Assembly (NCBI GenBank): GCA_946965045.2
Contig: OX337233.1
Coordinates: forward strand, 2,542,001-2,606,000
Direction: 5' to 3'
From: Epithemia pelagica
Lineage: Eukaryota > Protista > Bacillariophyta
DNA: 64,000 nt
Shown: positions 8,729-42,743 of the stretch, one piece after another
How the letters are laid out: each line of letters starts with the position of its first letter
Numbering within the stretch: the stretch's first letter is position 1
Translations under genes and position numbers: made by a program
The notes under the pieces: model-generated
The model's input: only the letters and a program-made list of their open reading frames with translations
Told to the model about the DNA's origin: nothing
Database searches by the model: none

Positions 8729-10312
8729 AGTTTCCGTCACAATCAACAATGGAAGGCAATTTGTTTGCGATGAAAGCGACCCTGTATGTTAGACAACGCG
8801 ATGTGGTTGCTTTGAATATACCCATTACACGAACCGAGTCAATGCCCAAGCAGCGTCCTCGCTCTTACGGCTTCGGCGTCGATCGATGGGCCGTCCTCGA
8901 CCCACTGATGCCCATCGTGCCCGGGCAGAAAAGTGGAGAAGGAACAGAATCGTAGCGTTACATGTTGTAGTGTTACGGAGAAAAGTTGAAGGGATTTACT
9001 CCTAATAACGCTTAGGAGTAGATGCGATGTGGTCGACATACAGTCGGAGAACAGTACCCTTCGGGATGGAACGGCAAAACGCAACCAGAGTGTTGAGTGT
9101 TGAAGTTCTACTTGACTGTTTTACACTTTTAAGCTTTAATTAACAACTTTTAACTTTTTTCATGAAAGTCAAGTCAATTTCCAGCCGAGATCCCATGACT
9201 TTTCTCTTTTCTCAGTGAAATCAAGTTGGACAGCACCACATTTTCAACTTTGACCTAACGTTTTTCATAAAGTCAAGTTCTGAACTATGACCTTCCAGCG
9301 TCAGCGTGAGCTGCGACTTCTACCATTACTCGTATCTCGAATCGTGGAAGTCAATAATATCTTAGTTTCTGACTTCTGACTTTAAGTCGACTTTTCTTTC
9401 TGAAAAAGTAAAAAGTCAATTTGCAAAACTTTTGTGGCAATTGAATTGGAACTCCATTGTTCCTTTTTCAAGAATTTGTTGATTTTGTGTGTTCCGTGTT
9501 CCAAGATCTCTAGTAGAGGTCGGTCCCGCAACAGCTCATCTCTGCTAGAGTGCGCTGGAGAGGTCTCTGCTGGAACTAGGTATGCGCATCCGCTGGAGAT
9601 AAGACTACCTGTGCTACCATGATAAAAATGCCTAGCTAGGGGAGTACTCCTAGTAACGAGAGCACTTATCTTGGTGAGAGCTTTCCTTTCCAGTGGTGGA
9701 ATAGTTGCTTGGTCTCCAGCAGAATCTTTTTGTTTTGTTGCCATGTCAATATTATCTCCTTTCAAGAATACACTGATAGGTGTCCTCTTACAGAACCTTC
9801 ATTTTGGGGGTGTGCTTCGGACTGCTATCCATATTGCACTCTTCCACAGTTGAAGAGTCATCATTGTTATTGCAATCAGACATTTTGGAAGGCTGTGTGG
9901 AGCAAATGAATGACACAGAGTGACCAGTATGAAACAAACAAATGAGAAAGGATAAAAGTGACCAGTGCAGAGAAAAGAGTACGGTGACTAACGTATACAC
10001 GCAACAGAAAATCTTTGCTGGGGATTCTCTAGCGCTGGATCTCCAGCGCTGAAGATGCGTGACTGCCTACTGCCTACCGCAGAACCAAGAACTGACTTCA
10101 AAGTTAAAAGCTGAGTTGACTTCATTTATGGGCTGCCAACCCGTAATTTGCAAATTCCTGACCCCCCATAGCCCTGGACCCCCCATTTAACTTCAGCGTA
10201 CATCGCTCCCTTAATTTTTATCTGTAGGCTCTTGACCAACTATAGGGTTACCCCCACATTCCTCACTCCTCACGTTCAAGCCTTTCTATCGCAATGGCTC
10301 ACATCTCACATA

Positions 10313-12231
10313 CTCCCTCCGGCTCTTTTTTATCGCACGAAGTTTTGAAAAATGACATAACGTCTCGAGCGCCAGCCCGTTGGCGCTAAAAATTATATAG
10401 ATCGAAAGCTCTTTACAAGACCTACATTTCGATGTATAATTTGTATGTTCAATCTCTCATTCCTGGAGAGTTGTGGGCAACTAAAACAGGAAAATTGACA
10501 AAGACAGACTTTTGCGTACCGGTTCTTGACCCCCAGGCCCACCCAAGCCATGCCACCTTCAGGGCAGGCCCGCAGGGGTGCAAAGTACAAGGAGTTACGG
10601 TCAGAAGACCGTGGGCGTGCGATTTCCATTCTCATGGCTTCTTGCCAGAATGGGTCCTTGCCTAGAGGTGCTCTTACATCCGTCGCCAAAATGTTTGATG
10701 TGCACCCCTCCACCATAAGTAGATTGTGGAAGCGTGCCGAGCGCACACGTGCCGAGGGCCTAATTCATTCGCCCGAAATTTCATCCGGGACAAGCTTGCG
10801 CGGACGATTTCGTATTTCTTCTTCTCCTACGGTTAGGGAAACGGTTAAATCCATCCCCCTCATGATGCGTCGATCTCAGAATCAACTCTCCGCCGTTCTG
10901 GGTGTGGCAAAATCCACGGTGCAGCGATGGATCAAGAAAGGCACTCTTCGATCACACACCAGTGCTTTGAAGCCATACCTGACAGAAACCAACAAACTGG
11001 CAAGATACCTAATGGCAACTTCATTCATCAATCCCCAGAAACCCGGTGAGTACCAAGACATGATGGATATGATACATGTGGATGAAAAATGGTTCCATGT
11101 TTCAAGGGATGGACAGCGCTTCCTGTTGACAGACGATGAAAATGACCCCCTGAGAACCTGCAAACACAAAAGCCACATCACCAAAGTGATGTTCTTGTGT
11201 GCAATTGCTCGTCCTCGCTTTGTTACAGCACTGAATCAGTGGTGGGATGGAAAACTTGGCATTTGGCCAGTTGGTGAGTGGGTTCCAGCACAGCGAAACA
11301 GCGTGAACAGGCAGAGAGGGACCCTTGTGTGGAAGAACACTTCTATCACTAGGGATGTCTACAGGGATCTACTAATGGAATGTCTCATGCCAGCTATATT
11401 GGAGAAATGGCCAGAAGCTGACAGGAACAGAAGGACCCTGAGGATTCAGCAGGACGGAGCAAAAAGTCACATTCAAGAAGGGGACATCTACTTCGTTGAA
11501 TTTCTGAGGGCCATGGAGGAGTTGGGAGTCAAGGCTGAGTTTTTCACCCAAGCTGCAAACAGTCCTGATACAAATATCTGTGACCTGGGTTTCTTTCGTG
11601 CAATCCAGAGTCATAGTTTGATTGTTGGGTCGAGTGAAGGGCAACTGATTGAGTCGGTGCTGTCTGCCTTTGCTTCATACCCTAGACAGAAACTGAACCA
11701 CACATGGCTTACCCTCCAGTCCTGTTTCAATCAAATAATTGAACAGGAAGGAGGGAATGACTACAAGATTCCACATATGAACAAACAGGGCATGGAGAGA
11801 AGGGGGGAGCTTCCCCATGTGCTGCTAGTCACAGACGCTCTCTCCAGCCCTACAAGCAGCAATCTGCAAGAGTAGAAACTAATCCTATTAGTCCTACAGA
11901 ATACCTGGTTGACCTCCAATTGAGCAAGGAGGCAACCAGGGGCTACGGCCAATGATTGTACCCATAGGATAGATCATTGTGTATTGCGTTGTTGTTGCTG
12001 CTGCTATTCGTGGTTTTTTTTGGTGGAGGGAGATTGCTGAACCGTTGAGGAGTGAAGATTGAAGGAATGGATAGATTTTGTGGCACGTGTCACAGGGTAT
12101 GTTCATCTCTAAAATTCGACTCTGAATGAGCCGGCCATCCTCCTGTAGAAATGTACCAGGTCCTACGACGGGTGTTTATGCGACTGATTTTTAGAAAAAA
12201 AATTCGTGCGATAAAAAAGAGCCGGAGGGAG
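10313..12231 (+). mobile_element. Complete Tc1/mariner-superfamily DNA transposon (plant-mariner/Stowaway-type TIR), 1919 bp
   Basis: Perfect 29-bp TIRs CTCCCTCCGGCTCTTTTTTATCGCACGAA at 10313-10341 and 12203-12231, flanked by TA at 10311-10312 and 12232-12233; the transposase ORF lies inside. Confidence 0.95.
10550..11875 (+). CDS. DDD transposase (mariner-like, intact)
   Basis: HTH region (LTSVAKMFDVHPSTISRLWKR); catalytic motifs IHVDEKWF, IQQDGAKSH and NSPDTNICDLGFF. Confidence 0.93.
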   Translation: MPPSGQARRGAKYKELRSEDRGRAISILMASCQNGSLPRGALTSVAKMFDVHPSTISRLWKRAERTRAEGLIHSPEISSGTSLRGRFRISSSPTVRETVKSIPLMMRRSQNQLSAVLGVAKSTVQRWIKKGTLRSHTSALKPYLTETNKLARYLMATSFINPQKPGEYQDMMDMIHVDEKWFHVSRDGQRFLLTDDENDPLRTCKHKSHITKVMFLCAIARPRFVTALNQWWDGKLGIWPVGEWVPAQRNSVNRQRGTLVWKNTSITRDVYRDLLMECLMPAILEKWPEADRNRRTLRIQQDGAKSHIQEGDIYFVEFLRAMEELGVKAEFFTQAANSPDTNICDLGFFRAIQSHSLIVGSSEGQLIESVLSAFASYPRQKLNHTWLTLQSCFNQIIEQEGGNDYKIPHMNKQGMERRGELPHVLLVTDALSSPTSSNLQE

Positions 12232-12442
12232 TAAGACGGGAGGGAATCAAAGAGGAGAAACAAGACATACCACATGATGGGTATTGTAATTAGGGTTCAG
12301 GCTGCGCTTCGAAGCATAGCCTTTCTGGATTCTACCGTAGTTCATCCAACCCTTCTTTACACCCCCGATGCTGAACATGAACGTTACTATGAAATTTAAT
12401 GATTGAAAATTGCCGGCCCCCAAAGTCGATTCATTTGCTTTG

Positions 12443-13017
12443 GACGACTATGTCATTCATGACTGAATCCAAGACTCAGATCCAATTTGCGATGGATACT
12501 CCAATGGAGTCGACTTGGACTCAAGAGATACTAGGGGTAGCTATGATGGCAACCAAACTGGAGTCGACATGGATTATACTTGATGCAATCAAGTAGGAAC
12601 CTAATAGATGCGTGGGACCTATTGTACTCAATCCTAGCTACCAGAAGAGATTGCTGCTTTCCTACCAAAACCAATTGGTGACAGAATCACCAGCATTTAG
12701 GTCCGGATCTACTCCTACCTCTTCTGAGTGTAGCTAGCGGTCTACTAGATAGCATAGCTACTCACTACTCATACAACCACCCGAATGTGATTCGGATGAT
12801 GGGCAGACGACTATGTCATTCATGACTGAATCCAAGACTCAGATCCAATTTGCGATGGACCAATGGAGTCGACTTGGACTCCAGAGATACTAGGGGTAGC
12901 TATGATGGCAACCAAACTGGAGTCGACATGGATTATACTTGATGCAATCAAGTAGGAGTAAGAACCTAATAGATGCGTTGTCCCTATTGTACTCAATCCT
13001 AGCTACTGAGAGATTGC
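12443..13017. repeat. Direct-repeat pair of ~210 bp (12443-12654 and 12806-13017)
   Basis: Near-identical copies GACGACTATGTCATTCATGACTGAATCC...GTACTCAATCCTAGCTAC, differing by small indels and a few substitutions; period ~363 bp. Confidence 0.9.
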
Positions 13018-13526
13018 ACAACTTTGTTTGGCTAGGTGTTAGTGACATAGTTGCTACTCTCACTAGAGGACGTGGGGAGATGTTTCGTGGGTTGGTTCGT
13101 TGGGCGTGATTCTGACGTGGAACAGCGTGGTGAAATGGTTTTTATTTAATGGATTGATAAAACAATGGATGACCGTTCTTCGATCATTGTTTTTCTTCGG
13201 GGCTGAATGCTTTTGAATAGGGGTTGGCCCGCATCGTACCGCATCGGTCAAGAAGGGATCGACGGACGAACGATGACCAAGTAAACGCACCCAAGGAGTT
13301 CCTGGAAGATTAAGTTGTGTTGGGACGGTCATTGGATGACCGACCCAACAAAGTTTCAACAATCATAAATTGTTGGAAAGAAGCTTTGTGAAGAGCACCG
13401 TTGGATTTGATCACCCATTCGGTTCTTTACATTCTTCTTTCGCTTCGGTTTTTCTCCCTGTTCGGCCGTGCCATCCACCTCTTCTTTGTCCTCGGTTTAC
13501 GTGTAATCCTCGGTTTACGTGTAACG

Positions 13527-14108
13527 ATGGGTGAGTTTGAGTGGGGAAGTACTCCGGATTCTTCGCCTTCTGTGGGGTCGTCAGGTGAGTCGGTTGTGTT
13601 TGTGACCGGGGGGGGGACCCTTCGTTCGGGTTCTCTCTTCGGTGTTGTTCGTCTCGAACAAGATACGTTCGAAGCGTCTTGTCGGGGCATAATTGGGGCA
13701 GGGCAACGCGTATGTGTTCGGGTTGGATGTTCTGTGGCTTCGCATGCCGCCAAGAAGCAAGTATGGAGCAAGTTAGTGGGCGATGACCCTTCGGGTATCT
13801 TCATTCGGGGTTCTGGTGGTTCCTCAAGTTCGGATTCTTTGGAAACCGTCTTTTGCCAACCAGTTCTTCCGGGCAATTGTATTCGTTCTATTGACTGGAA
13901 CGAGATGGAACTTAGTCCTCGCTCTCTAGAGAGCTGGCAGGCAACCTTTGCATCCCTCAAGCACGCCGCCTCCGAGGCAGGCGATGAGGTTGATCTCACA
14001 ACTGTTGCTAAAGTCATGGAAAACACCAAGGCGGAGGTAAAGTTCGTCGCGATGACCCCTAATCCTAAGAGAGTGGCTAAGCGAGGGCACGCAAACGGTT
14101 ATGAGTGA
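13527..14108 (+). CDS. YR retrotransposon ORF1a (gag-like N-terminal part, Cys/His motif)
   Basis: ATG at 13527; CRGIIGAGQRVCVRVGCSVASH possible Zn knuckle; its stop overlaps the start of the next ORF (ATGAGTGA). Confidence 0.55.
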   Translation: MGEFEWGSTPDSSPSVGSSGESVVFVTGGGTLRSGSLFGVVRLEQDTFEASCRGIIGAGQRVCVRVGCSVASHAAKKQVWSKLVGDDPSGIFIRGSGGSSSSDSLETVFCQPVLPGNCIRSIDWNEMELSPRSLESWQATFASLKHAASEAGDEVDLTTVAKVMENTKAEVKFVAMTPNPKRVAKRGHANGYE

Positions 14109-17100
14109 AATCGAGGAGGATCTAGATGTTAAACCGTCCGCGGTCGATACTCCCCAGAAGAGACGATCCGTGGTTCCCTGGCACGATGTCCCAGAAGATA
14201 TTGGCAATCAGCAAGCCACTCCCAGTGTGAAGGTCCTGCAGGGTGGCGCGTGGAGCAACTTAGTTGCTAATGTGAACACGCTGAGGTTGGAACATGAAAA
14301 GGAGAGCAAGGAAAGAGATTCGATGGAGGAATCTCTGGATGATGAGATCGAGGAGATCCACGTCAAGCTTTCGGTCATTCATGCCTTGCTGGGTGAGAGA
14401 TCCCCGGATTTCGGTACGCAGTCGGCGTTTGAGATTTTGGCAAATTGTATGACAATGATTCATTCCTTGCAGGATGCGGTCGGAAAACGTTCGGAGAAGG
14501 CAATGGATGCCGAAGTTGTGCGTCGCTTAGAGGCTGTGGATCGCAAGGTAGATCAAACAATGGCGTCATCGAAGGCACTTGTCCAAGAGGGTTTGGATAA
14601 GTTTTTTGGCGACAAGAGTGAGTTTAGACAGCAGTTTGTCAACCCGACCCTCTCTCTTCTCTCTCGTTCGTCGGTGCACAAGAGTGACCCAGGAGGCAAG
14701 TGGGCGACCATGTTCTCTGACTTGGTCACTCGGCTGGAGGTTTTGGAACAGAGCTCCACCCAGCAAGGATGGACTCAGAACACAGGAAGTGGAGGAGGCT
14801 CATTTGGATGGGGTACTTCATCTTCTAAGGTTGCTGGTTTGAGTGTTGCCCCGCAGTCTGTGAGTTTTGCTGGAGGGGAAGACGCTGACAGGATGCAGAA
14901 GGAGTTTGCTCGAATGAAGGAGGAGTTGAAAGAGTTACGGTCGGAAATGAGGGATCTCCAAGACCAGGCTGAGACGGATGCGATTGCTGTTGGATCCATA
15001 GTTTTCACAACTCGAGGGTTTTGTGTTTCCTGGATGGCCCGCCACGACGTTACTGCGGACCCGCACGTTTTCGTGGATGCAGTTTCGTTGTTATCGTTGG
15101 CAACGTCGGACGTGAGTTTGGATGAGGAGCGAGCGGCGAACCTTCGGGCCACCACGGCAAAGGTCAGAGACAAAACGCCATATCACACGGCGTATATTGC
15201 GTCGTTTAACCTTGAGGTCCCTCCGTTGCTAGGGAAAGGTGCAGACCAGTCACAGACGACGAATTCGCGGGCGCTAGGTGGGGCACCCAAATTTGAAGAC
15301 TTTCATCCACCCTCTGGTAGAGAAGGTATCCATCAGAGGATCCTGGACCACGTGAAGGACGGGAAAAGAACTCTCGAGCAAGCAATCGGCGATTTGTTTG
15401 CGTTTGGCACGGAACCGGCAAGTGTCGCCCATGAGTTGTTGCTTCAAAGCAAAACCTTTTGGGACGACCTGTGCCATTGGATCGTGCGTTACCATCAGCA
15501 GGTGCAGGCGGAAAGTGAAGCCAGTTCCCAAGAAGTCTGGATTCTGATTTCTCATTGTGTCCGCGCGATCTTTCGAAGTCTCAGAGAAGCACGGGCGCCA
15601 GGACGTGCAACAAACACACCACCTGGCATGCTGTGGGGCACCTTGCGGGCGCACGAAGTGATGAAGGCCTACCGCCAGGCGGACTTCAGTGGACATCCAA
15701 AAATAGCACTCATCTTGCATGAGCATTTGATCCGGTTCGCAACACCGCGTTCCAAGTTTGCTGCTTTGAAAACAGGTTTGGAGGATCGTCTGGATATATA
15801 TATAGTAAATTCTAGAGTTTAAGACTATCCTAGGCATGTGGCATACACAAGGTGGACTCGTCTACCGTGGCCGTAGCGACGGATTTGGATGAGGTGAATG
15901 AAATGAAAGGAGGTGTGTCAGATGGCCAAAGGAGCGGCGAACTTGGTTCGCATGGGCGGGATCTTACGACGGGTGGTTATTATCACCCTCAGTGTTGGAA
16001 ATTGAATTGGAGTGTTGGCGCCTGGAAGGTTTGAAATATTCTCGGATGTCGCGTTGTCGGTGAGGGAGGGGTAGAAATGAAACTGATGTGGTCGGTTTGG
16101 ACTGCTGGGTGCCCGGCTGTTGGACTGGGAAGAAGGTGCGGATGTCGGTAGTGTGGAGGCGAGTGTGAGTGTCCTTCCGTTGTTGGCCAAGTGCAACAAC
16201 CGGGCCGACAACTGTGATCCAATCTTTGAGCTCCGCCGTGGATGAAGTAGACAGGCGTTGGTCTAGCGGGCATTCAAACGGTGTACGATCCGCACTTAGG
16301 AGGTTTGCACTTGCTCGATAGAGTTGTCGGACCATGCTCTCCATTCTTTGTCGTGTGTGGGGGCTATCTGTGCGAAAATGTTTGTGAACACGAAGATTTC
16401 GTTGATGCCATAAATCGTAGCTGGCATGCCAGAGATGGGTCACCAGGGCAGGTGCCCAAGGCGGTGGTGGACGTTTTTGATTGGTGATGTGCGGATTGGC
16501 CTCGAGATACTGGGTCTGGTGAAGGCGCCATCCTTTTGGAATGAATCCGCGGAAAACTAGGATTGGGTCGATGTCGACAAGGTCGCCGTCGGGGGAATCA
16601 TGGGCCTCCTGTTCTGGCGGTGTGGCTAACCGTTGTTCAAAGCATGTGAGGAGATGTTCTTGGAGTGTGGGCTCCGTGTAGAGATTGGTAAGTTCGTCCC
16701 GGAGGTTGGACAGGAATTTGTCTCGCCATGGTTGGGAACTTCTACACACATACAAATGATTTTGTGTTTCATCGAGTGGGCAGCACGAACAACTGGGTGA
16801 TACTGGTTCGTATTTGGCGAGTCGGACGTTGGTGGGCAGCCAACCGGCTAAGAGTTTAACCAGGAAGGGGCGGGAGATGGACGTCTGGGAGCACGCTTGT
16901 TCAAAGGCCATCCAGTCAATGCAGTCGTGGGTTGTAGGGGTCCATTGGTATTTATGCTGGAAATACGTAGCCAATTTTTTGCCGGGGACGATCTTGCGTA
17001 AGACCTTGAGCTCATCACCGGAATGAGGGCCGTAGGCCTGAGTGACAAGGCGGATCTTGCAATTAGGAAGCAGGGGGTACCATGGTCGGTCGTTTGTCTG

Positions 17101-18206
17101 TTGGCGGTCAAGGGCGATCGTTGCCATTTCGTCGGCCAAAACATTGAGTTGGGCCAGCCTGGGAAGAAAATTAAAACTGACGGTAGCATCTTGGTGACCT
17201 TTCACGTGTTCAAAGGTGACATAGTATGGAAATACTTTGAGCACCGCAAAAATCTCGATGAATACATCAATATCATTCCTGGTGTAGACGGAGGAGTACC
17301 ACAGCTCGCCGTAGCTTCGAAGCTCATCAAACCGTTGGATAAAGCTTAGGCTGTCCGTGTGGACGAGCCATTTCTGGATGGGGTTGCCGGCGAAACCGAA
17401 GTACTGGACCGCATGCTGAAGGAAGCATAATAAACACCAGATCGACCATGTCTCGGCACGGAAAGATGACATTGGCCAGCCCGGGACTGACCCATATGCT
17501 TTGAGCCAAACGTTGGTATCATTCCCAATCACCCATCCGTAGGAACCGTTGGGGGCACGACAACCACCATCGCAGACACAATGGAGTTGATGTAGTCGGG
17601 ACGGCTGGTTGAGGAGCTGAAAGATCTGTTGCAGTCCCTGATCCGAGGCCACGAAATCAATGTTGCGGTGAAAGGGCGGCCAGTAGTGAGTGAAACTTTC
17701 CAACAGGCCGTGGGGTGCCACAGAGGGGAGGGGGAGGTCATAGATGTAGTCCAAGGCTGGAGGCACCGCGCATAATCGGCGTGGCCAGTCCACCCGGGTA
17801 GGGAAACAGTTGGGGGGGAGCTTGGTAATGGGATGGAGTTTAGGAATGTCAATATGCCGGTCATAAAGCGCGGAGCACACCCCGTCGGGAGAAGTGTAAT
17901 ATCTTATAAAGAAATTGCCTTCACCTCGGATCAATAACTGGTCTGTTTCAAAATGATAATAAGCTGGCCATAGTCTCTCCGTAGATTGCGGTAGCCATTT
18001 TTCCAAACGTTCACTAAGAGTGTCGGTGTGGGCGTTTCGGCAAAAAGTGCGACGGAGGAACCGACGGAAGATCTGCCACTGGGCGGGGCCTGGGCATTGT
18101 TGAATAGGCCATAATTCCTGGTCGAGAGGATCGTCTGGATAAGTTGCAACGATCAGTGAACTCTGTAGTGTCGTCCAATAACAAAGGATCGGCCAAGAAA
18201 GCGTGA
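14101..18206 (+). CDS. YR retrotransposon gag-like ORF1b, split by the LINE; reconstructed as join(14101..15796,18142..18206), 586 aa
   Basis: Removing 15797-18141 (the LINE plus one TSD copy) gives an open frame ...GLEDRLD-KLQRSVNSVVSSNNKGSAKKA* (stop 18204-18206). The protein is rich in coiled coils. Confidence 0.75.
15797..18125 (-). mobile_element. 5'-truncated non-LTR retrotransposon (LINE with RNase H, Ambal/L1-like), inserted antisense in the YR element
   Basis: 16-bp TSD GAGGATCGTCTGGATA at 15781-15796 and 18126-18141; (TA)n 3' tail at ~15797-15803 on the minus strand; stop at 15964 followed by a ~167-bp 3' UTR. Confidence 0.92.
15964..18125 (-). CDS. LINE ORF2 C-terminal fragment: RNase H and CCHC-type Zn knuckle
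   Basis: RNase H motifs CVCDGG, SSFRAET, VHTDSLS, HVKGHQD and LNVLADEMA; Zn knuckle CSCCPLDETQNHLYVC. The first ~66 aa of the tracked 785-aa ORF are antisense host-element sequence (YPDDPL is the TSD). Confidence 0.88.
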
Positions 18207-18218
18207 TATGATGAGATC

Positions 18219-21200
18219 GTGAAAAATGACGGCGGTCGGAAGCGAAAGGCGGTTGAAGTGTTGGATGTTGAAGCGATGAATGAAGAAAAGAGCGAAGACG
18301 AGAGTGATAACAGCTCGTCAAAGTTTAATTGTTATGTAGAAAGACCGGCGTTTTGCCTCTCGCCTGTTGGAGTGGAGGAGCGAAAGATTACTCGCTTAAA
18401 AGTAGGCAAGGGTGATTGTAAGATTGGATTGGCGAGCGGTGGAACCCCCTTTTGGTTTTGGGCGGTGTCATCGCTCGGCCATGTGAAATGGATTGATACG
18501 CCGGAAGAGAAGGTATCCGGTGGTGAGACTGGCTCGTCAGGTTGGGCGAAGTTGGCGATTATACGGGAAAGCAAATTGACGAGAAATAAGGGAACCAAGA
18601 AAATGAGAATTGCGGTACGGCGGCCACAATCCTGGAAGGATCGACCCGATGTTGATATTGTTTTGTTCGATGGGGGTTGGACGCCAACCCCGCGTCATTC
18701 GGTATGGAAAATGCCGACGGTACAGGTGGTTTGTTGGATTGGAGGTCGACAAGGAGCAGGACCGTATCGTCATGATGCAAATTGGACCACGACGGTAATT
18801 CGGTTACGACACGACGAATTGGGCGGCGTTACGACACAAGAATCCTTAATTCATGTGGCTGAGCGGGTGGTTGAAGGTAGACCGCATCGATTTGTTGATT
18901 GTTGGAGGAACTTTGTGGAGCCAGGTTTGGAAAACACGACGATGAGTGGTGTGGTGGACCCAACGATCAATGGGCAGGATTGGCCAGCTCCTTCAGCATA
19001 TGACCCGATGAAGGAAGGTGTCAATATCGTACACCGCAAAATGAATTGGAAAAAGGATCGACATCGAATGCATGTGTTGCCAAGTGTGTTTACAACATCG
19101 TGTCATGTCAAACGTCGGCTTTCACCAAAAGAATTAGCTATCGCTCTGGACTTCCCAGCAGAGCTCCACAAACATGGATCGTCGGAGGAGTTGAATTGTT
19201 GGTTAGATGAACTCTTGGTTCCATTCAAGTGTCGAGTTCAGGTGGCGCTCTCATTACGAGAATGGATGAGTGGTACCCAGGAGGAACAAGAGAACGAACC
19301 ATTGGATCAGGACTCGATGGATCAGGCCGGGAAACGAGATTTGGGGACAAGCTCTGAAGAAGCACGAATGACGGAAGCTGAAGCCTTGTATTCAGCACCT
19401 GACAGTGAGGAAGGAGTTGGTTCATTGAATGTTGAGGAACGACGTGAGGATCGAAATCTCAAAGCGACAAAGTCAGACGATGCGGAAATCCCGACTTACC
19501 TGTGGGATGATCGTATTTGTGACAAATTGGGAATTCGAGATGTGAGGAAGCAAGCGGAGTGCATCAAGGCGCTGAACGTAATCAGAGGGGCCGCACTAAG
19601 GTACTGGAAGCGACGGGTTTGTTCGGACTTTTGGTCGTGGTGGCGGTTTCAGCGTTTTGATCAGGACAATGGCGACACTACGTTGAGAGATCGCACTTGG
19701 CAGGCCGGATTGAGCGCTTTGTCGCACGCATCCCAAGCCTCATGGTGGGATTGGGACAAGGGGTCGTCCCCATTTTTCTGGAGGATGCCGGATCCTCAAT
19801 GGCTACGCGATATGCGGGACGGGATAGCACCCATGTGGATAGGTGAACCCCCGTCGTATCGCAGGAGGCAGCAAGCCAATCCAGACGAGAAGCAAAGAGC
19901 CTTCGAAAAGAAGAAACTGACGAAGGTGAGATCGCGAGGATATATTGCTCCAACCAACGGCATTAAATCCTTGACAAGCTTCTTTTCTGTCCCTAAAGGA
20001 GAGGACGACATCCGCATGGTATACGATGGTACCAAAAGCGGACTGAACGACTCCCTGTTCGCACCTTGGTTTGGGTTAGGCAACGTGAATTCCATGTTGC
20101 GTACAGTGGAGTCAAGAACATGGTCAGCAGACAACGATTTCGGTGAGATGTTTCTCAACTTTTGGTTGCATCCGGATTTGAGAGCATACACAGGCATTGA
20201 TATTACTGACCTTTTCCCCGAAGAGTTGAAGAACCGTTACGGACGGACTCGATTATGGGAAGCATGGACGAGATGCGCCATGGGTCTGACAACATCACCA
20301 TATCAAGCGACACAAAACGCACAACGAGTAAAGAGACTCATTTTTGGGGATAAGTTAGACCCGAAAAACATCTTTGGATGGGTGAACGTTCGGTTGAACT
20401 TACCAGGTGACGCAGATTATGACCCAAGCGTGCCATGGGTTAGTAAGATTCGAGACGACGGCGTCATCGCAGCTGATGTCCACCCATATGTGGACGATTT
20501 GCGAGAGACGGCACCATCAGAGGAAGAAGCTTGGGCGGCTGCAAGCAAGATGGCGAAAGGAGCGTCCTTTTATGGTTTGCAGGATGCAGCAAGGAAGCGC
20601 AGGCCTCCGAGTAAAACGCCTGGCGCATGGGCCGGAGCTGTAGTGGGAACGGATGAGAAGGGGCAGGTGTACAAAACGGTGTCCCAGGAGCGCTGGAAAA
20701 AGACAAAGGGCCATATAAACACTCTCAAGCAGTGGGCCGAAGAAGGAGGAAAGATTGATCGCAAAGAATTGGAGAGAGTTAGAGGCTTTCTGGTTTATGT
20801 TTCTTTGACGTTTGACACAATGGTACCTTACCTTAAGGGAATCCATCTCACGTTAGAAACTTGGCGGTCAGATAGAGATGCGGAGGGTTGGCGACTTCCG
20901 GAAAAGGATCGTCAAAAGAGGAAGCTTAGCGAGTTGAACAAGAGCGAGGGACCGCCAAAGAAGGTGGATCCTGCTCCTCGTTTTGCTAGCGATGTCGCAG
21001 CCTTAGTGGAATTGACGAGAGACGAATCGCCGCCCAGGATCTTGGCTCGCCCAACAAAGGGAGCGAAAGCAGCGATTATCTTCGGAGATGCCTCTGGGGA
21101 GGGTTTTGGCTCGTCGCTCTGGCTGTATGGATCGCAGACCGTGGAGACAGAACACGGATTATGGACCAAGGCATATGGTGGCCGGTCTTCAAATTACCGA

Positions 21201-22013
21201 GAATTATACAACTTGGTTCTCAGGTTGGAAGCGTTGGTCAACAATGGCACCATACCGAAAGGATCGGAAATTTTTATGTTCACGGATAATTCCACGGCAG
21301 AGTCGGCCTTTTTCAGAGGAACTTCATCGACTCCACTATTGTATGATCTTGTATTGCGAACGAAGCGGCTTGAGATGACGGGTCAAGTTTTCGTTCGGGT
21401 AATCTGGGTGGCAGGAACCAGGATGATTGAGCAAGGGACGGATGGTCTGTCCCGTGGCGATTTAATGACGGGAGTTATGGCCGGCGGAGACATGCTTATG
21501 TATGTTCCGTTGAACAAGACGGCGGAAGAAAGACAGAGTGGATTGGTTGCTTGGCTGAAGAGTTGTGGACCCTCTTTCCTTTGGAAAGTTCTCGACACCA
21601 AGGACTGGTTTGATCGGGCGTTTGAAGACGATGATTTCATAAGGATGCCACCACCAGCTATTGCTGATGTGGCCGTTGATCAGTTGTGCGAGGCGCGACA
21701 TGTGCGAACACGTACAGGACACATATTCATTTGCCCTGCCCTCATGACGAATCGTTGGCGCAAGAAACTCGGCAAAGTGGCGGATTGCGTTTTCACTGTA
21801 CCAGTGGGCTGTGCTCTTTGGAGTAAATCTCAACACGAACCTTTGATTGTTGCATTTGTTTGTCCGTTTCTTTATAGGCGTCCCTGGCAAGTTAAACGGA
21901 AGAAGACTCTATTGGAGCAAGTGGACGGGGAACTGCAAGGGCTGTGGGAGGCCGGTCCAACCGCTGTCAGGGATTGTCTGCGCAAACTTTGGGAGTACAA
22001 GGGGGACGAGTAA
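18219..22013 (+). CDS. YR retrotransposon pol: putative C5-MTase-like relic, W-rich region, reverse transcriptase, RNase H and DIRS-type MT-like domain
   Basis: RT motifs FFSVPKGEDDIRMVYDGT, DNDFGEMFLNF, MGLTTSPY and YVDD. RNase H motifs IIFGDASG, SSNYREL, FTDNSTAE and TDGLSRG. C-terminal FIRMPPPAIAD...HIFICPALMTNRWRKKL. Confidence 0.88.
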   Translation: MKNDGGRKRKAVEVLDVEAMNEEKSEDESDNSSSKFNCYVERPAFCLSPVGVEERKITRLKVGKGDCKIGLASGGTPFWFWAVSSLGHVKWIDTPEEKVSGGETGSSGWAKLAIIRESKLTRNKGTKKMRIAVRRPQSWKDRPDVDIVLFDGGWTPTPRHSVWKMPTVQVVCWIGGRQGAGPYRHDANWTTTVIRLRHDELGGVTTQESLIHVAERVVEGRPHRFVDCWRNFVEPGLENTTMSGVVDPTINGQDWPAPSAYDPMKEGVNIVHRKMNWKKDRHRMHVLPSVFTTSCHVKRRLSPKELAIALDFPAELHKHGSSEELNCWLDELLVPFKCRVQVALSLREWMSGTQEEQENEPLDQDSMDQAGKRDLGTSSEEARMTEAEALYSAPDSEEGVGSLNVEERREDRNLKATKSDDAEIPTYLWDDRICDKLGIRDVRKQAECIKALNVIRGAALRYWKRRVCSDFWSWWRFQRFDQDNGDTTLRDRTWQAGLSALSHASQASWWDWDKGSSPFFWRMPDPQWLRDMRDGIAPMWIGEPPSYRRRQQANPDEKQRAFEKKKLTKVRSRGYIAPTNGIKSLTSFFSVPKGEDDIRMVYDGTKSGLNDSLFAPWFGLGNVNSMLRTVESRTWSADNDFGEMFLNFWLHPDLRAYTGIDITDLFPEELKNRYGRTRLWEAWTRCAMGLTTSPYQATQNAQRVKRLIFGDKLDPKNIFGWVNVRLNLPGDADYDPSVPWVSKIRDDGVIAADVHPYVDDLRETAPSEEEAWAAASKMAKGASFYGLQDAARKRRPPSKTPGAWAGAVVGTDEKGQVYKTVSQERWKKTKGHINTLKQWAEEGGKIDRKELERVRGFLVYVSLTFDTMVPYLKGIHLTLETWRSDRDAEGWRLPEKDRQKRKLSELNKSEGPPKKVDPAPRFASDVAALVELTRDESPPRILARPTKGAKAAIIFGDASGEGFGSSLWLYGSQTVETEHGLWTKAYGGRSSNYRELYNLVLRLEALVNNGTIPKGSEIFMFTDNSTAESAFFRGTSSTPLLYDLVLRTKRLEMTGQVFVRVIWVAGTRMIEQGTDGLSRGDLMTGVMAGGDMLMYVPLNKTAEERQSGLVAWLKSCGPSFLWKVLDTKDWFDRAFEDDDFIRMPPPAIADVAVDQLCEARHVRTRTGHIFICPALMTNRWRKKLGKVADCVFTVPVGCALWSKSQHEPLIVAFVCPFLYRRPWQVKRKKTLLEQVDGELQGLWEAGPTAVRDCLRKLWEYKGDE

Positions 22014-23424
22014 GCCTTGTTGTGGTATCTGGCATGCGAAATGTTATACTCAACTGTCGGAAGACAGGTTTCCAGTTTATGAGGCTGGGGATTTGGACGA
22101 TGCCTTGTTGGACACCGAATTGCATTGCGAATTGGCTGATGATGAGAAACGCTTCCGAGAGGCTCGCGTTGGAGATGACCTGATGTGCAACTTCCAATGC
22201 GACGAATGCAGTTTCTATAACATGCAGGGAAGATTTCCGAGTGACCACAAGGAAGCCGACAAGCTATTAATGTTGTGCATTCGGAGGGCGACTTTGGATT
22301 CGTTTTGGTCACGAGAACGCACCACAGTAGAAAAAAATTGGAGGGAGGTTAGAGGTTTGATCGAAGCAGGTGAAACAATGGGCTTAGACCAACCTTTGCC
22401 GCAACGAGGACCGTGTCCGGTAGTGGATGATCAAGGCATGAAGGTAGCTTGTCTCATGTTAATCAAGACAATGAATCAGGGCCGAAACTCGAGGCATATT
22501 CAGTTCGAGTCGGCTCGCAAGGTCAGATCAGCAGTGTCAAATTTTTATCATACATTGCCAGGTGGCACAGGCTTGGCAACCGTTGGATATGGTGACCGTG
22601 GTGGATTGTTCTTTAGTGGGAGTCCGACAAATTCTCACTGGTACAAACGATTCATGACCGGCTGTCATCGACGAATGGGGGATGTTTGGATCCCAGACCA
22701 AGCCACAACGTTGGACGAAGTAAAAGCAGGATTAGCCGTCTTAGAGGAGGAATGGCAGGGAGGTTTGCAGGGGGCAAGAAAACTTGAAGTTGCTTTGACG
22801 GGCGCGTTGGTAGTGGTTGGTTTCGTGGCAGCGTTGAGGGGAGAAGAAATCCCACAGATCGACATCGGCTTGATGAGGAAATATTGGGTTGAGGGCCTTG
22901 AATACCCAAGAAAAAGCCATGTTCCGTTAGCATTGGCTGGGCGGTTTAAACAAACCAACGGAACCTTCAGAATCTACATCCACCCGTTGGCAGACAAGAC
23001 TAGCTCGGGTATTGAAGTGCGATTGTGGTTGGAACGAGCCATTCGATGTTGGAATGCAAATGGAGTCACCTCTGGCCCGTTGTTTCGAGTGACAAAAGGA
23101 AAGGGCAGGATTGCAAGAGCTTCTGTGGGCGACTTGGACATTCTATTTCACGATTTGTGGAAACGAGTCCAACACCGTTTTCCCCAACTCATTCCAGACA
23201 CCACAAAAGTTGAAGAAGCATTTAGCGTCCGTCGTTCTCTTCGGAGAGGAGCAACCACCGAAGCGCAAAACAGGGCAATTCCCACAGAAGTGCTAGAAGC
23301 AAACAATAGATGGAGAAAGCATCTGAAAGGAAGGGGAATCCTCCCCACCATGTCGATGGTTGAAAGATACACTGATGCCAAGGCATCAGTAGAAGCCTTG
23401 GTGAGATTCTCAGAATTGATGTGA
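21847..23424 (+). CDS. Tyrosine recombinase with Cys/His-rich N-terminus, overlapping the end of pol
   Basis: AALRGEE (R), GRFKQ (K), RRSLRRGATT (xxxR box), NNRWRK (W) and VERYTD (Y); N-terminal CKGC...CANFG...CCGIWHAKCY...CNFQCDEC. Confidence 0.85.
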   Translation: MLHLFVRFFIGVPGKLNGRRLYWSKWTGNCKGCGRPVQPLSGIVCANFGSTRGTSKPCCGIWHAKCYTQLSEDRFPVYEAGDLDDALLDTELHCELADDEKRFREARVGDDLMCNFQCDECSFYNMQGRFPSDHKEADKLLMLCIRRATLDSFWSRERTTVEKNWREVRGLIEAGETMGLDQPLPQRGPCPVVDDQGMKVACLMLIKTMNQGRNSRHIQFESARKVRSAVSNFYHTLPGGTGLATVGYGDRGGLFFSGSPTNSHWYKRFMTGCHRRMGDVWIPDQATTLDEVKAGLAVLEEEWQGGLQGARKLEVALTGALVVVGFVAALRGEEIPQIDIGLMRKYWVEGLEYPRKSHVPLALAGRFKQTNGTFRIYIHPLADKTSSGIEVRLWLERAIRCWNANGVTSGPLFRVTKGKGRIARASVGDLDILFHDLWKRVQHRFPQLIPDTTKVEEAFSVRRSLRRGATTEAQNRAIPTEVLEANNRWRKHLKGRGILPTMSMVERYTDAKASVEALVRFSELM

Positions 23425-24172
23425 GGAGGTGAATCTTGAGGAAAATGAAGAGATGGATGACAAGATACGAGGGGAACGACCACACAGGGTGAAGACTCGA
23501 CTGTACTCCCTAGTGGGTACGTCCAGGTCGCTTGTTGTTGTCAGCTTGACTGTTGAAGATTGGGGGGCTAATTCTCCAGGTTGGATGCTGGGGGTTGGCA
23601 CCCTACAGCAGCTGACTACTGTACTACTGCGAAGAGATTTCGAGAGTGCAGGCTCACTTTGTGAGTAAAAGGAGAATGGCTCACTAGTTGGATACACGCT
23701 CGCCCACAGCAGACGCGCATCGTTCAGAATCTGGAGTTCTGGCAGCGCGGCGCGATTCCGGATCCTTCCCTACATGGGACTGATGGGTGGGGGGCCTATA
23801 CCCCCCCAGTGTTGGTTAAGTACTTTAATATAATGTTATCAGGTTGATGAACGAGACAGGAACGCTGAAGTGTTGCGATTGCTTGGAAGAGAGAGGATGA
23901 AGTACCGGCGTTTTTTGCCTTACATGGGAAGGTTTTGGTGTAAAGTACTGAATTTCGACTCTTGAGCTAAAAAAGTTTTTCTAGTCTTTGATGTTTTTCA
24001 ACCCCCAGACCCCCTTAGCCTGCCGGCTTACCCGACACGTTCATTCTGAACTCAGTCGAACATTGCTTATGTAGCTCCTCAGCTCTCTGTTGACGATGTT
24101 GAACATACTCCTAGAGGAGTAAAACACTGAAAAGGAATACTCTTTTGTCAAATATATTAACGAAGCATAGTC

Positions 24173-32598: not shown

Positions 32599-35500
32599 TC
32601 AGTTTTTGCCGTGCTTCACAGCCTCCAATCTTGCTCGGAGGTTGGCTGCAGCCGTGGTTCGATCTAAGGTACCAGAAGCAGAGGAGGATCTGGCAACATG
32701 CCTTTCGCGCACACCGTCCGCAACTTTCGGTACGCCTCGACCGCTTTCGGAAGGCGCGCCCCTCGTCACCTTGGATGGTGATGGCAATGCCAATCCGGAT
32801 TGTGCCGATGCTCGTCGAGAGGGTGAGGGCTGCGCTAAGCGCGATCGAGGAGAGGGGTGTGCCAGGCGGGTGGACCGCGAAGGTCCAGAGGTTACAGAAG
32901 TTGACACTGACAACCTATTTGGCAGAGGGTCTGCGGTTGGTTCTTTCTCAGGAGCTTGAGCAACGGCATCCTCTCCAATTGCGGGTTGCACAGCTCGTTC
33001 CGTCGCTTGTAGACGAGTGCGTAATTTACGCAATCTTTCAGACATTGAGTTGCAGCTCTCTGAATTAGCAGGGCTTGATGCCCCGGAAGCAAGTTGGTCT
33101 TCTATGAATTTCCGAAATGGAGGTGAAACTTCTTCAAGGTATGCTTCAAGCTCTGCGGTTCCAAATTCATCTTTGTGACGCCGGAGTTCAGCTAGAGCCT
33201 TGCCACGATCAAGACCCTCCTTCGAATTTCCAAGGGCAGTAACAAGCTCAGCAATAGATGGCCCTCTCGTGTTGTCCGAATTCTCGTTCCCAACGTCATT
33301 CATTTCAAGAGCCAATCCTACCCTGAGATCTTCTTCGGATAAGGAACTGACAAGATCAGCCAAAGAAGAGTACTTCGTAGATATGGCTGCACCCTCCATG
33401 ATTTTCCTTATCTGACCTGATCCACCATGTACCTTTAATATGGATTCAGTTAAACTCGACACCATTTCTCTGGACGCATCGCTGTATGGTCCATGGCTGT
33501 CCCTACAACGGTCCAGTGTGTCATCCATGATGGAGACCAAAGACTCCATATCCATGCTTGTCAAAGTGTAAGGGGTTTCAGCCGCTTCTTCGGCCTTAAT
33601 AACTCGCAAAAACAATCTTGAAATTACCCTCGAAAGACGACCATTGAAATCTTTAGCATCACTAAGTTCGGCGTCATTGGCTTCAGTAGCGAGTTGCTGT
33701 TGTATAGTAATTAATGCATGAAATGAGGTGTGTCTTGGAGCTCCAGTAGCTGCATTGACTGCTGTTTTGTTTATCGCTTTTGCCATCTGCGCACAAGTCG
33801 CGTCGTCAAGATCTGATTCAGCTGAAAATCTGGGGTCGAGCAGGATCGTAGCAGTCTCCCGTACAAGTAAAGTCAAGTCATCAAGACCGACATTCGATGC
33901 GACGTCAGAAAAACGAAATAACGCCATAAGCGTAGCCAGTGACACCGATAGTAACGGGATGGAGATTCCGGCAGTGCTGTTGGATCCAAGACAAGACAAT
34001 GAAAATCGAATGACACTTCGAGAAACATATTAGACAGGTCAGTTATGTACACACAGACTCGCCTCCTTTCTTACCTTATGAGGTGTGAGATTAGAACACT
34101 AACATTCTCCACCAAAACTTTTTTGAGTGTCGTTTGTCCACCCCCATTTGTCTCTGCTGAGTTAGCTAGAGCGGTGTGGACTTTCTTCAAAGAACGTGTT
34201 GTCGTCAAGATATCAGGGTCGTCATCAAGCAATGGTGTTGACCTAACAAGGAGAGCCTTCACATGGCTAAGCACTCTCTTGTATTCTTCTCTTCCATCTC
34301 CCTGAGCTAGAATGGCCGAAATGTCATCGAAGTCTCTTTCTCCTTGGGGAGGCTTTTGATCAGCATCCGAACCCTTGTTTTTTTCCTTTATTTTCAACAA
34401 GCGTGCCCTGAGGGACGCAGCGGTTCCAAGAGTACCGCCCATCTGTGATGTATGATGAGAGACGATAGGTTGAGAATCTGCCATGTCATTGATGGAATTG
34501 CTTTGCGCCCGTGCTGTCTCCACCGGGTCGTGTAAAACCTGGGCGCGGAACAGATCGGAAGACACCGAATCTTGCTGAGAATCAGCTAGGCGCTCGTCTG
34601 CGCGAGACATTGCCGATTGACCAAAGGCAAATGGATCATTTGGATTCAACGTTGATCTTTCTTCGTGACGACCAATTTGTTCTAAGGGTTCTGCCTCCGA
34701 TCTCAGGTTGAAAGCTGGAAGCTCATCTTGGAGAGTGGCACTCCGTTCGGATCCTGGTGTTTCGTGAGATGCAACTCCGAAATTTCTTCTTTCCGGTGTC
34801 AATTCCACAGGCACATCATTCATCTTCTTCACCGAAGGGATCGGGGGAGGCAGGAGCTCCTTTCTTGACCCATTCTTTTTCCATCGCTCTTCGATAGCCT
34901 CCTGCGCTTTAGAACTCAGAGCAGTGCCACATATTTTCGCCAGCTTTGTAACATCCCCGTTCATTCGTCGAACAATTTCTTCCATTAGATCCAACGCTGC
35001 AGCCTTCGTTTCGGGAAGGTGCTCTTCGGAAAGTGACTTTGCGGCTACAACGACACCCTTTTTCCCAATTCCAGGCAGTCCAGCAGTCACAACGCACTCG
35101 CGACAAATTGCGAACGCCAACGCCCTTGCTTTCGCGTGGTTTGAGCGCTCAATCACTTGAACGCATGCAACTGGGCCCAATATTTTGGTTGAAATAAGGG
35201 TTTCAGAGCGAAGTTGACCTACTATCTCCATAAAAGACTCGCGAAAGCGACCTTTTGCATTGCTTGTTTTCTCAATAAGAAAAGGAACAATCACGCATAC
35301 TTCGTCTTCGGAGAGTCCTCGTTTAAGTTCAAGGAGGAATCCAAACAGTTTGTCGATGAGCGATAGGATTGATTGTAAACCAACAGTTGCTTCTTTACAA
35401 CAAAGAACAAACGCTATCCACTTCAGCATGCATTCCAGGTGAATATCGACGACTTCATAGCTACCGCTGTCTAACTCCATTGTGAGGGCACGTTCGAGCA

Positions 35501-41500: not shown

Positions 41501-42332
41501 CCTCAGCTCCTTCGTCCGATGCAAACCGATCCGAAGCACCCGATTTCGCAGATATGGCTCGCAGCTCCGCCAAGAGCTCGGCGTCTTCAGCCGCTCCACC
41601 ACGATCTCCACTGAAAGTACTAGGAAGGTTAGATTTTATTCCATAGCCTTGCTCTTCGTTTGCAGAAGTGGCCTCCAATCCGCTCGATAGTGGGACGGCA
41701 TCTTCTTCCTCCGATCGGAATCGATCGGCGGCACCCGACTGTGACGAAATCTTTCGAAGCTCGGCCAAGAGTTCGGCATCTTCCGCGGGACCTCCGCGAT
41801 CACCCTGGAAGGTAGAAGGGAGGTTCGACTTGATACCCTGGCCTCCTTGGGGCGCCGGGGAAGGCGATCGTTGTTTCAAGTCGGATTTGCGGCGTTCGGT
41901 TTCGACTCGATCGACCACAGCAGCAGGAGGTTTGCGATTGCGACCAGCCGAAGTGGGAGGCGTCTGTGGCTTTTTGGCACCTGCCTTCATGGGAGGTGTA
42001 CGACTTCCGGCCGGTGATCGACGAGAGGTGGCAGGGGACGGAGCACGACGTACGGGTGTCGTTGTCTTGTTGGTTCTCGTCGTGGCAGGCGATGGTGTTC
42101 GTGTTCTACCCCCTGCAGGGGAGGCTTGTCGAGAAGGATGCTTCACGATAGAACCCGATGGGTCCTTTCGTGACGGAGTAGATGACTTCTTGGTTGCATT
42201 ATTTGTAGTGACAGTATTTTTTTCAGGCTCCTTTGTGAGATCGTCGTCGTCGTAGTCGTCGAACCGGGATGTCGCCGAACGATTGGAGATGGCTTTCAAT
42301 TCTGCCAGCAGAGCTGCTTCGTCTTCGTCCAT
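32599..42332 (-). CDS. CKAP5: XMAP215/ch-TOG/MOR1 microtubule polymerase with a repeat-rich N-terminal extension; complement(join(32599..33976,34075..42332)), ~3211 aa
   Basis: TOG starts LVSKDWKLRVQSY, NQKWSEKVAAL, SSSKWTLKNDAI and AAWKMRKEAIEEV; HEAT repeats; C-terminal LRARL helices. Intron 33977-34074 (GTAAG...CAG) keeps the frame (HLIS-TAGI). Confidence 0.9.
39610..42332 (-). repeat. Coding repeat array: 8 full copies plus 1 partial copy of a ~40-aa unit GIKSSLPNTFxGDRGGAAEDAELLAELRAIS...RF
   Basis: Counted directly in the 2756-aa ORF; interleaved with five TPPWKRK motifs. Confidence 0.93.
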
Positions 42333-42743
42333 CTTTCGCAACTGTTGGCTGAATCACCGATGCCAACGACACGGGATCGTAATAGGACACGGCACAAACG
42401 GATGTAACAGCGACAATCAAATAATGGAGGATGTTCCAAACTTCACACACTTGTGCTTCTCTGCTTTCGCCCTCGTCGTCTTTGCCCACTGTCACTCTGT
42501 GTGACACCGAAATCTCGCAATCGCTCCACCTGATGGGTTGGCGTGCGCGGCAAAGAGGAGGAGGACGGGTAAAAAGCTGTTTAATCGAAGGAGAAATGAG
42601 CCGATCCGTCAATGGCCCGCGCTTCGACTCCGCACTAAAATCCTTAACCCTATACAGCAACAACATCATCAACAAAATGGACGAACGACGATGGACTTTG
42701 TCCTCTCCAGTACGACCTTGACACAAACTTCATTGACACAAAA

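Follow-up and report, generated by a model that had tools for sequence, protein, structure and literature searches.

The DNA methyltransferases (DNMTs) captured by retrotransposons have so far been explained by self-methylation. Here we analysed a 64,000-nt stretch of the diatom Epithemia pelagica (assembly GCA_946965045.2, contig OX337233.1, positions 2,542,001 to 2,606,000 of the forward strand; the whole stretch is called the window below), which contains a retrotransposon with a tyrosine-recombinase (YR)-like open reading frame (ORF). The Pol protein of this element opens with a domain predicted to have the fold of a C5-cytosine DNA methyltransferase (C5-MTase), which is likely to be catalytically dead across its family and, judging by the substitutions between copies, is under purifying selection.

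DIRS-like, long interspersed nuclear element (LINE) and Gypsy elements with DNMTs have been described in dinoflagellates and a charophyte; according to the accessible part of that report their key residues are kept and some of them methylate CG (PMC5890265). A first, sequence-only reading of the window had cited captured DNMTs from such retrotransposons, DIRS included. SymbioDIRS-Dnmt3 of Symbiodinium, from the same source, resembles the window element in its DIRS-like design, with a C5-MTase in the Pol ORF together with reverse transcriptase (RT) and a separate tyrosine-recombinase ORF, which in the window element is putative. Its domain is likewise under purifying selection (Ka/Ks < 0.2 in the accessible text of PMC5890265) and congruent with the RT tree. 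However, SymbioDIRS-Dnmt3 is reported there to have its key residues in place, to match PF00145, to cluster with Dnmt3 and to be active on CG sites in yeast, methylating them, whereas the window family has no PF00145 match and lacks the catalytic and S-adenosylmethionine (SAM) motifs. A term search of the available text of PMC5890265 returned neither 'diatom' nor 'stramenopile'.

EpiLTRs and DAM-DIRS (bioRxiv 10.64898/2026.05.21.726589) are retrotransposons bearing both a DNMT and a Dam-like domain, a pairing that the window element shares in the form of its predicted C5-MTase fold and a putative Dam-like remnant. In the accessible text of that preprint, EpiLTRs are Gypsy-like elements of Cymbomonas and Euglena with a chromodomain, DNMT4-related DNMTs and a Dam domain that keeps Asn-Pro-Pro; unlike them, the window element is probably of the YR type and both of its methyltransferase-like domains lack the catalytic motif. 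The terms 'diatom' and 'inactive' were absent from a term search of this preprint. In addition, an inactive N6-adenine methylase is a feature of DIRS1-class elements, a stramenopile one included, as far as the available sections of Iyer and Aravind (2012; PMC3537659) go. Both cases concern a catalytically inactive DNA methylase kept in YR or YR-like retrotransposons, but theirs is an adenine methylase downstream of RT and RNase H, whereas the window domain has a predicted cytosine-5 fold upstream of RT. Reviews and surveys of diatom DNMTs (PMC9998398, PMC3145265) mention, in their accessible portions, no diatom DNMT borne by a transposable element (TE), and the repeats given in a Chaetoceros preprint include 'LTR/Ngaro', with no details of their domains. 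Our full-text literature search, with subscription papers, Repbase reports and supplements outside its scope, returned no dead C5-MTase in a retrotransposon. DNMT-bearing retrotransposons have already been published, with key residues conserved; the window element has the DNMT-bearing DIRS-like architecture, yet its domain lacks the features of a catalytic C5-MTase.

Fold and motifs of the first Pol domain

The pol ORF and its first domain are located as follows.

18207..22013, + strand: pol ORF, 1268 aa from stop to stop, with leader, pseudo-C5-MTase, variable acidic linker, RT, RNase H and Dam-like methyltransferase remnant
18410..19265, + strand: pseudo C5-cytosine DNA methyltransferase domain, predicted from fold model, motif counts and selection; pol aa ~69-353, ~290 aa

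The sequence-only reading had proposed seven C5-MTase-like segments here, and all of them do lie in the pol frame, in the proposed order, upstream of the YVDD at 20487 (I-like, 18420-18455; II-like, 18483-18497; IV-like, 18648-18674; VI-like, 18720-18743; VIII-like, 18795-18866; IX-like, 19107-19157; X-like, 19212-19256). A template-free AlphaFold2 model of pol aa 53-362, based on 105 family sequences that do not match PF00145, reached a predicted local distance difference test score (pLDDT) of 90.4 and a predicted TM-score (pTM) of 0.88, and the five models stood at pLDDT 87-90. With this model, Foldseek returned 36 PDB matches at E<=0.001, the best being M.HhaI (6e-7) and all those listed being C5-MTases, and in BFVD it returned named viral C5-MTases. 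A VIA-align search of 48,161 chains gave 19 at Z>=8, every one from the C5-DNA-MTase family. The best chain, 10mh (M.HhaI), had 261 aligned residues at Z 17.2 and a root-mean-square deviation (rmsd) of 3.9, compared with Z 6.7 for the closest unrelated fold. Because the alignment spans M.HhaI residues 2-327, the small domain is part of the fold match. The best matches are bacterial-type, with DNMT3 at Z 12.0-12.3, which is a statement about fold score and not about phylogeny; the divergence of the domain is too great for an alignment with the DNMT families. Furthermore, the strands and helices of the model coincide with the proposed motifs I, II, IV, VI, VIII, IX and X in the expected order. 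The predicted full-length topology, small domain and motifs IX-X included, is that of M.HhaI, M.MpeI, M.HaeIII, Dcm and DNMT2; unlike these enzymes, the window domain lacks FxGxG, PC, ENV, QxRxR and GN and has a shortened catalytic loop and helices.

Support at the sequence level was weak. Identity in the structural matches was 7-12%, Pfam gave no match at E<=1 for the window protein and PF00145 in none of the 105 family members at E<=0.1, and PDB sequence searches found nothing significant. Local hhalign comparison of the family with 26 bacterial C5-MTases yielded a weak match (probability 7%, E 0.005, score 27.4; 25 block-shuffled controls scored 18.3-25.4 and the reversed one 11.2), with motifs VIII, IX and X in register and the IV-like strand misplaced onto motif VI, and the global mode against the same 26 sequences found nothing. 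As a lead only, the top two ESM Atlas clusters (score 0.90) have PF00145 in 20% and 29% of their members. Since the sequence searches were weak or empty, the fold assignment rests on the predicted structure. Pol's first domain is accordingly described as a predicted C5-MTase fold with a large and a small domain; the sequence-only reading was borne out on this point by AlphaFold2, Foldseek and VIA-align, and obtained no significant sequence-profile match.

Motifs were counted over the window domain and 110 homologous domains from 156 proteins (46 short or repetitive ones were left out), each over the rows that cover it. Motif I FxGxG was found in 0/69 and acidic motif II in 9/77, the window copy being among those nine; PC occurred in 1/103 and EN in 1/106 (two different sequences), PQ in 0/109, RxR in 6/109 and GN in 0/85. 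The 26 bacterial references, which had been chosen for FxGxG, PC and GN, have FxGxG in 26, PC in 22, ENV in 26 and GN in 26. The loss of PC, ENV and RxR, which the sequence-only reading had asked about, is therefore near-universal in the family alignment. No member with intact catalytic motifs was found among the 110 aligned domains, and inspection by eye of the deep-branching loci L019, L020, L032, L033 and L035 revealed no intact motif set. On the other hand, the motif IX scaffold RxLxxxE...FP, in register by hhalign, is kept: RxLxxxE is retained in 86/92 and [DE]xP in 85/92, together with PxK in 78/89 and the family-specific HxxLGG in 97/109.

Between the strand-4 Asp and the end of strand 5, the family has 28 residues (26-31, n=100) vs a reference median of 47; between strand 5 and the motif VIII Gly it has 28 vs 40 in the references. 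Because both stretches are shorter, the catalytic loop and two helices are cut down, with the loop region ~19 residues short. In M.HhaI, the enzyme uses these missing residues and this loop to attack the flipped cytosine and to keep it in place. As the ENV Glu, the two motif VIII Arg and ~19 residues around the catalytic loop are absent, the domain is unlikely to methylate DNA or to flip bases in the canonical way, so that the base-flipping role offered by the sequence-only reading is not supported in its C5-MTase form, and the domain is likely to be catalytically dead across the family. It is extremely improbable, in our judgement, that the domain remains an active C5-MTase whose motifs can no longer be recognised and which methylates its own complementary DNA (cDNA) as SymbioDIRS-Dnmt3 would. 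The architecture is indeed that of SymbioDIRS-Dnmt3, whose domains methylate CG in yeast (PMC5890265, accessible part), and some Cys is present within region 155-165 in 14/103 rows, but no Cys, Glu or Arg pair is conserved, the loop is short, the SAM motifs are gone and, in the window copy, the stretch between aa 149 and 168 is free of Cys.

The most invariant residues of the family are W193 (110/110 rows), H202 (96%), G206, G207 and W167; T209 (88%) and K341 (92%) are also well kept, and position 155 is acidic in 78%. As H202, T209, K341 and the acidic position 155 are not C5-MTase motifs, they might form a new active site (H202, T209, D/E/Q155 and K341) with some other nucleic-acid chemistry. 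We regard such a repurposed enzyme as improbable, however, because no Cys or metal-binding cluster is conserved and the conserved set consists mainly of Trp, Gly and Pro.

Retention and selection across the family

When 1.84 billion representatives were searched with a profile of seven close homologues, 212 clusters matched at E<=0.001, and 150 of these clusters were listed. Among the listed matches with at least 150 aa after the domain, 36/36 run on into a Pol of this type (35 recognised by phmmer, 1 by eye), and no gypsy-linked member occurs among these 36. No relative of the domain was found in viral contigs; longer fusions (1326-3785 aa) were not found either, which is weak evidence. One homologue is an MMETSP transcript.

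Metagenome loci collected through their RT motifs allowed the question to be asked from the other side. The standard search recognised the domain in 34/49 loci, and a sensitive search placed it in 30/30 of the Pol rows scored, deepest branches included (L032 was dropped at that step; it had a standard-search match). Two of the 15/49 loci without a standard match do match in the sensitive search, most others start within or just before RT, and L017, L028, L029 and L047 are left over. The domain is retained in members with only ~20-30% identity to the window copy. Its tree recovers the RT-tree groups, with long branches and modest support. Because the position is universal and the domain tree follows the RT tree, the simplest reading is a single capture before the clade spread, which makes the domain ancestral to its element clade.

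Selection was estimated by the Nei-Gojobori ratio of nonsynonymous to synonymous substitution rates (dN/dS) for 15 pairs of loci. The six diverged pairs gave 0.10-0.16 for the domain, 0.04-0.06 for RT and 0.26-0.57 for the linker; among the unbroken loci L006, L007 and L008 the values were 0.14-0.15, 0.04-0.06 and 0.35-0.57, respectively. In addition, 24/32 listed domain differences between the window copy's relatives from the same sample fall at third codon positions (binomial p 2e-6 vs one third; counted from the 40 best-supported of 311 difference rows). The domain evolves ~3x faster than RT. By these substitution patterns it is under purifying selection; the check on conservation across copies that went with the sequence-only reading thus came out in its favour, both in the diverged pairs and in the retention of the domain across the family.

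The same data bear on whether the domain is a neutral relic or a modelling artefact, that is, a decaying passenger or a merely Rossmann-like domain. The lack of a sequence-level match, the low hhalign probability, the low identity in structural matches and the faster evolution relative to RT could be taken that way, but a dN/dS near 0.15, the retention in such distant members, the gap between the best Z-score and that of the next fold, the agreement of the five models and, as a lead only, the PF00145 in the top two ESM Atlas clusters all stand against it, and we consider it very improbable.

Element layout and expression of Pol

The retrotransposon is ~11 kb long and comprises two gag-like ORFs, pol and an overlapping tyrosine-recombinase-like ORF. 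Its other features are as follows.

13392..15796, + strand: gag-like ORFs, 5' part up to the insertion; 13392-14108 and 14056 onward, overlapping; named 'gag' from position alone
15797..18125, - strand: LINE-like fragment inside the gag-like ORF, flanked by a 16-bp target-site duplication (15781-15796 / 18126-18141)
18126..18203, + strand: 3' end of the gag-like ORF, in the same frame as the pre-insertion part and as pol
18204..18206, + strand: single TGA between the gag-like ORF end and pol, same frame; likely read-through site
19452..21000, + strand: reverse transcriptase with fingers, palm (YVDD 20487-20498) and thumb, from structural matches of the model
21063..21461, + strand: RNase H, from the VIA-align match of model residues 538-670
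21492..22010, + strand: Dam-like adenine-methyltransferase remnant, from motif and position; W/R-x-PPP, no Asn/Asp before PP
21847..23424, + strand: putative tyrosine recombinase ORF of 525 codons overlapping the pol end; LRGEE, RSLRRG, NNRWRK, MVERY, N-terminal Cys/His cluster

An AlphaFold model of pol aa 416-1268 (853 aa, pLDDT 89.4) resembles retroviral and caulimoviral RTs and RNase H. The best Foldseek match of its RT part is the cauliflower mosaic virus (CaMV) RT (E 6e-16), and VIA-align matched it to the Moloney murine leukaemia virus (MMLV) RT (Z 18.9, rmsd 2.6, 243 aligned) and its RNase H part to RNase H1 (Z 12.7, rmsd 2.4, 122 aligned). These matches support the earlier claim that the methyltransferase-like domain is fused to RT and RNase H, all within the same pol ORF, and they show the succession of RT and then RNase H that is expected of the DIRS order (definitions from the accessible part of PMC6681497). 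Downstream of pol, the tyrosine-recombinase-like ORF is kept across the metagenome loci, its R, RxxR, W and Y motifs lying where a recombinase would have them; by this motif pattern, the ORF at 21847..23424 is a putative tyrosine recombinase. Pfam gave no match for the gag-like and tyrosine-recombinase-like ORFs of the window, and neither inverted terminal repeats with an internal complementary region (ICR) nor split direct repeats were found within the window copy.

The C-terminal methyltransferase remnant is probably the inactive adenine methylase of the DIRS1 class, as its motifs suggest. Neither Asn nor Asp precedes PP in the 31/31 rows shown, while W-x-PPP and the pattern that follows it are present. 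The structural matches listed for the 853-aa model cover its residues 79-670 and do not include this region. RT is thus apparently flanked by two dead methyltransferase-like domains.

The way in which Pol is made can be judged from the gag-pol joint. Of the 16 loci that contain the gag end as well as the domain, 10 show just one stop, in frame, between the two (L003, L005, L010, L018, L020, L027, L030, L035, L045, L049), and 3 are in frame with one more stop; L033 overlaps in another frame and the remaining two are decayed. The in-frame loci are not independent, because six of them are close kin. The joint stop is TGA in the window and in 7/10 of the single-stop loci, often followed by C, and five loci have no Met from the stop to strand 1. 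Pol is therefore likely to be made by read-through of the gag stop as Gag-Pol, as far as these reading frames indicate. Among the papers listed by one literature search, none used the phrase stop-codon read-through in a YR retrotransposon. Two of the three loci with one more stop, L006 (1748-2722) and L008 (3959-4933), which belong to one subfamily, carry a highly charged ORF of 324 codons that fills, in frame, part of the interval from the gag stop to the second pre-pol stop. The two gag-like ORFs of the window, 13392-14108 and that from 14056, overlap by 53 nt in different frames, so a frameshift or a separate ORF is possible; their counterparts in L018 share a frame with a stop between them.

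The window copy itself is probably disabled in cis, because the LINE-like fragment interrupts its gag-like ORF, and its pol is intact. The fragment (15797-18125, - strand) has a short TA-repeat tail and no Pfam match. Contigs from three sequencing runs of one study matched 18093-20276 without differences; because pol depth in those runs is about half that of the right flank, the data fit a single hemizygous copy. The element ends (12000-13800, 23500-24100) were covered 20-50x deeper than pol in the assembled runs and were joined across internal gaps (13228>23905, 13367>23818), and for these reasons they fit many short non-autonomous or solo-repeat derivatives of the element. Elsewhere, L020, L033 and L035 are whole elements on contigs of 8.4-10.7 kb with identical ends of 115-127 nt that assemble as circles, for which circular intermediates or collapsed split direct repeats are candidate readings; L035 also has a 792-nt direct repeat after the YR ORF.

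Other parts of the window hold a Tc1/mariner-like DNA transposon at 10311-12233, with 36-bp inverted repeats, a helix-turn-helix transposase ORF at 10499-11872 and a depleted observed/expected (o/e) CpG ratio of 0.60; a 2760-aa ORF at 34074-42353 (- strand), with repeated units of 65-186 codons around 39500-41800; and a riboflavin-synthase-like gene at 25206, whose N-terminal signal ends in an ASAFAP-like motif, presumably a secondary-plastid transit signal and compatible with a diatom.

Possible roles of the domain

Net charge is positive in 60/67 near-complete domains, with a median of +2.8 per 100 aa vs +1.1 in the references, and K/R is found in at least half of the rows at 13 positions, for example 220 (83/108), 303 (89/94) and 341 (82/89). 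The domain would be present at the level of Pol and tethered to RT, it keeps both lobes, it is positively charged with conserved basic residues, and it lacks cofactor and catalytic motifs; for these reasons, the reading we tentatively favour, at somewhat less than even confidence, is a non-catalytic, cis-acting nucleic-acid-binding module of Gag-Pol.

On this reading, the history and action of the domain could be pictured as follows. First, an ancestor of the element clade would have captured a C5-MTase in front of RT once, as the fold, the universal position and the congruence of the trees suggest. Second, the alignment counts show that the SAM-binding and catalytic motifs and ~19 residues of the loop region were lost before the sampled members diverged. 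Third, the two-lobed scaffold with its basic surface stayed under purifying selection, and the cleft between the lobes would bind nucleic acid. With gag and pol sharing a frame, presumed read-through of the gag stop would then yield the domain as part of Gag-Pol, in the low amounts of Pol and alongside RT. Finally, it would hold the template or the cDNA while this is reverse-transcribed, circularised or passed to the recombinase, and it might also shield it from host methylation.

The same conserved surfaces can be read differently. The domain could be a protein scaffold that dimerises Pol or docks Pol on Gag, RT or recombinase in the particle. DNMT3L is a precedent for a dead methyltransferase that acts through protein binding, and like the window domain it is a dead C5-MTase fold retained by selection; it was not a listed match on its own, and it is a host gene partnering active DNMT3, whereas the window element encodes no active partner. 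In the model, the helices that cover the sheet are shortened or absent (H113-116 stands alone between strands 4 and 5, and none lies between 5 and 6), that face of the sheet carries conserved Trp and aliphatic residues, and the domain sits between Gag and RT with a variable linker. The fold match nevertheless keeps the small domain, which is the DNA reader of C5-MTases, and basic residues are conserved, so we rate a pure scaffold as rather unlikely.

An anti-silencing decoy or reader, which would occupy CG or methylated CG sites, poison the host DNMT or steer integration by methylation state, seems to us decidedly unlikely. Diatom TEs are silenced by DNMT5-dependent CG methylation (PMC9998398, in its accessible part), and the mariner-like element is depleted of CpG whereas the present element is not (o/e 1.05 in pol and 1.10 in the domain; 0.90 in the rest of the window). 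However, a domain made as read-through Gag-Pol would be scarce and particle-bound and hence a poor titrator of a host enzyme in trans, and the missing CpG depletion is a weak argument, as SymbioDIRS with active DNMTs show none either (accessible text of PMC5890265).

Several observations weigh against the favoured reading or the steps that lead to it. Motifs IV and VI were placed by strand order. Six near-identical pairs, mostly of broken copies, gave dN/dS of 0.38-1.28, and three pairs, including both with the window copy, were saturated, so that no usable pair contains it; in the decayed locus L012, most of the domain is gone. A Met lies close to the start of pol in the window copy and in the relatives nearest to it, and in L033 the frame of the gag-pol overlap differs, which makes read-through not the sole route. 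Furthermore, the positive charge is modest and compatible with other roles, and the most invariant residues (W193, H202, G206, G207, W167) could equally form a protein interface or a new active site.

The fold has been kept under purifying selection after the loss of the catalytic motifs, which suggests that such a domain can be worth keeping without methylating. The finding is relevant, too, to the inactive adenine methylase of DIRS elements, for which an explanation has long been wanting, and it implies that too few such captures are counted when a survey relies on PF00145. Because the domain is small, confidently predicted and readily expressed, its function is open to direct experiment. 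More broadly, and we hold this to be a rather unlikely though far-reaching proposal, an old algal YR-retrotransposon clade may have turned a captured C5-MTase into an obligatory non-catalytic domain for replication or counter-silencing, which, translated by read-through from gag, would clamp the cDNA of the element and conceal its CG sites from the host methyltransferase or steer integration; together with the dead Dam-like domain at the far end, RT would be bracketed by two pseudo-methyltransferases, and the dead fold may be shuffled into other retrotransposon classes. If an obligatory non-catalytic domain in an old clade proves true, it would point to a class of TE-borne pseudo-enzymes that is invisible to domain annotation.

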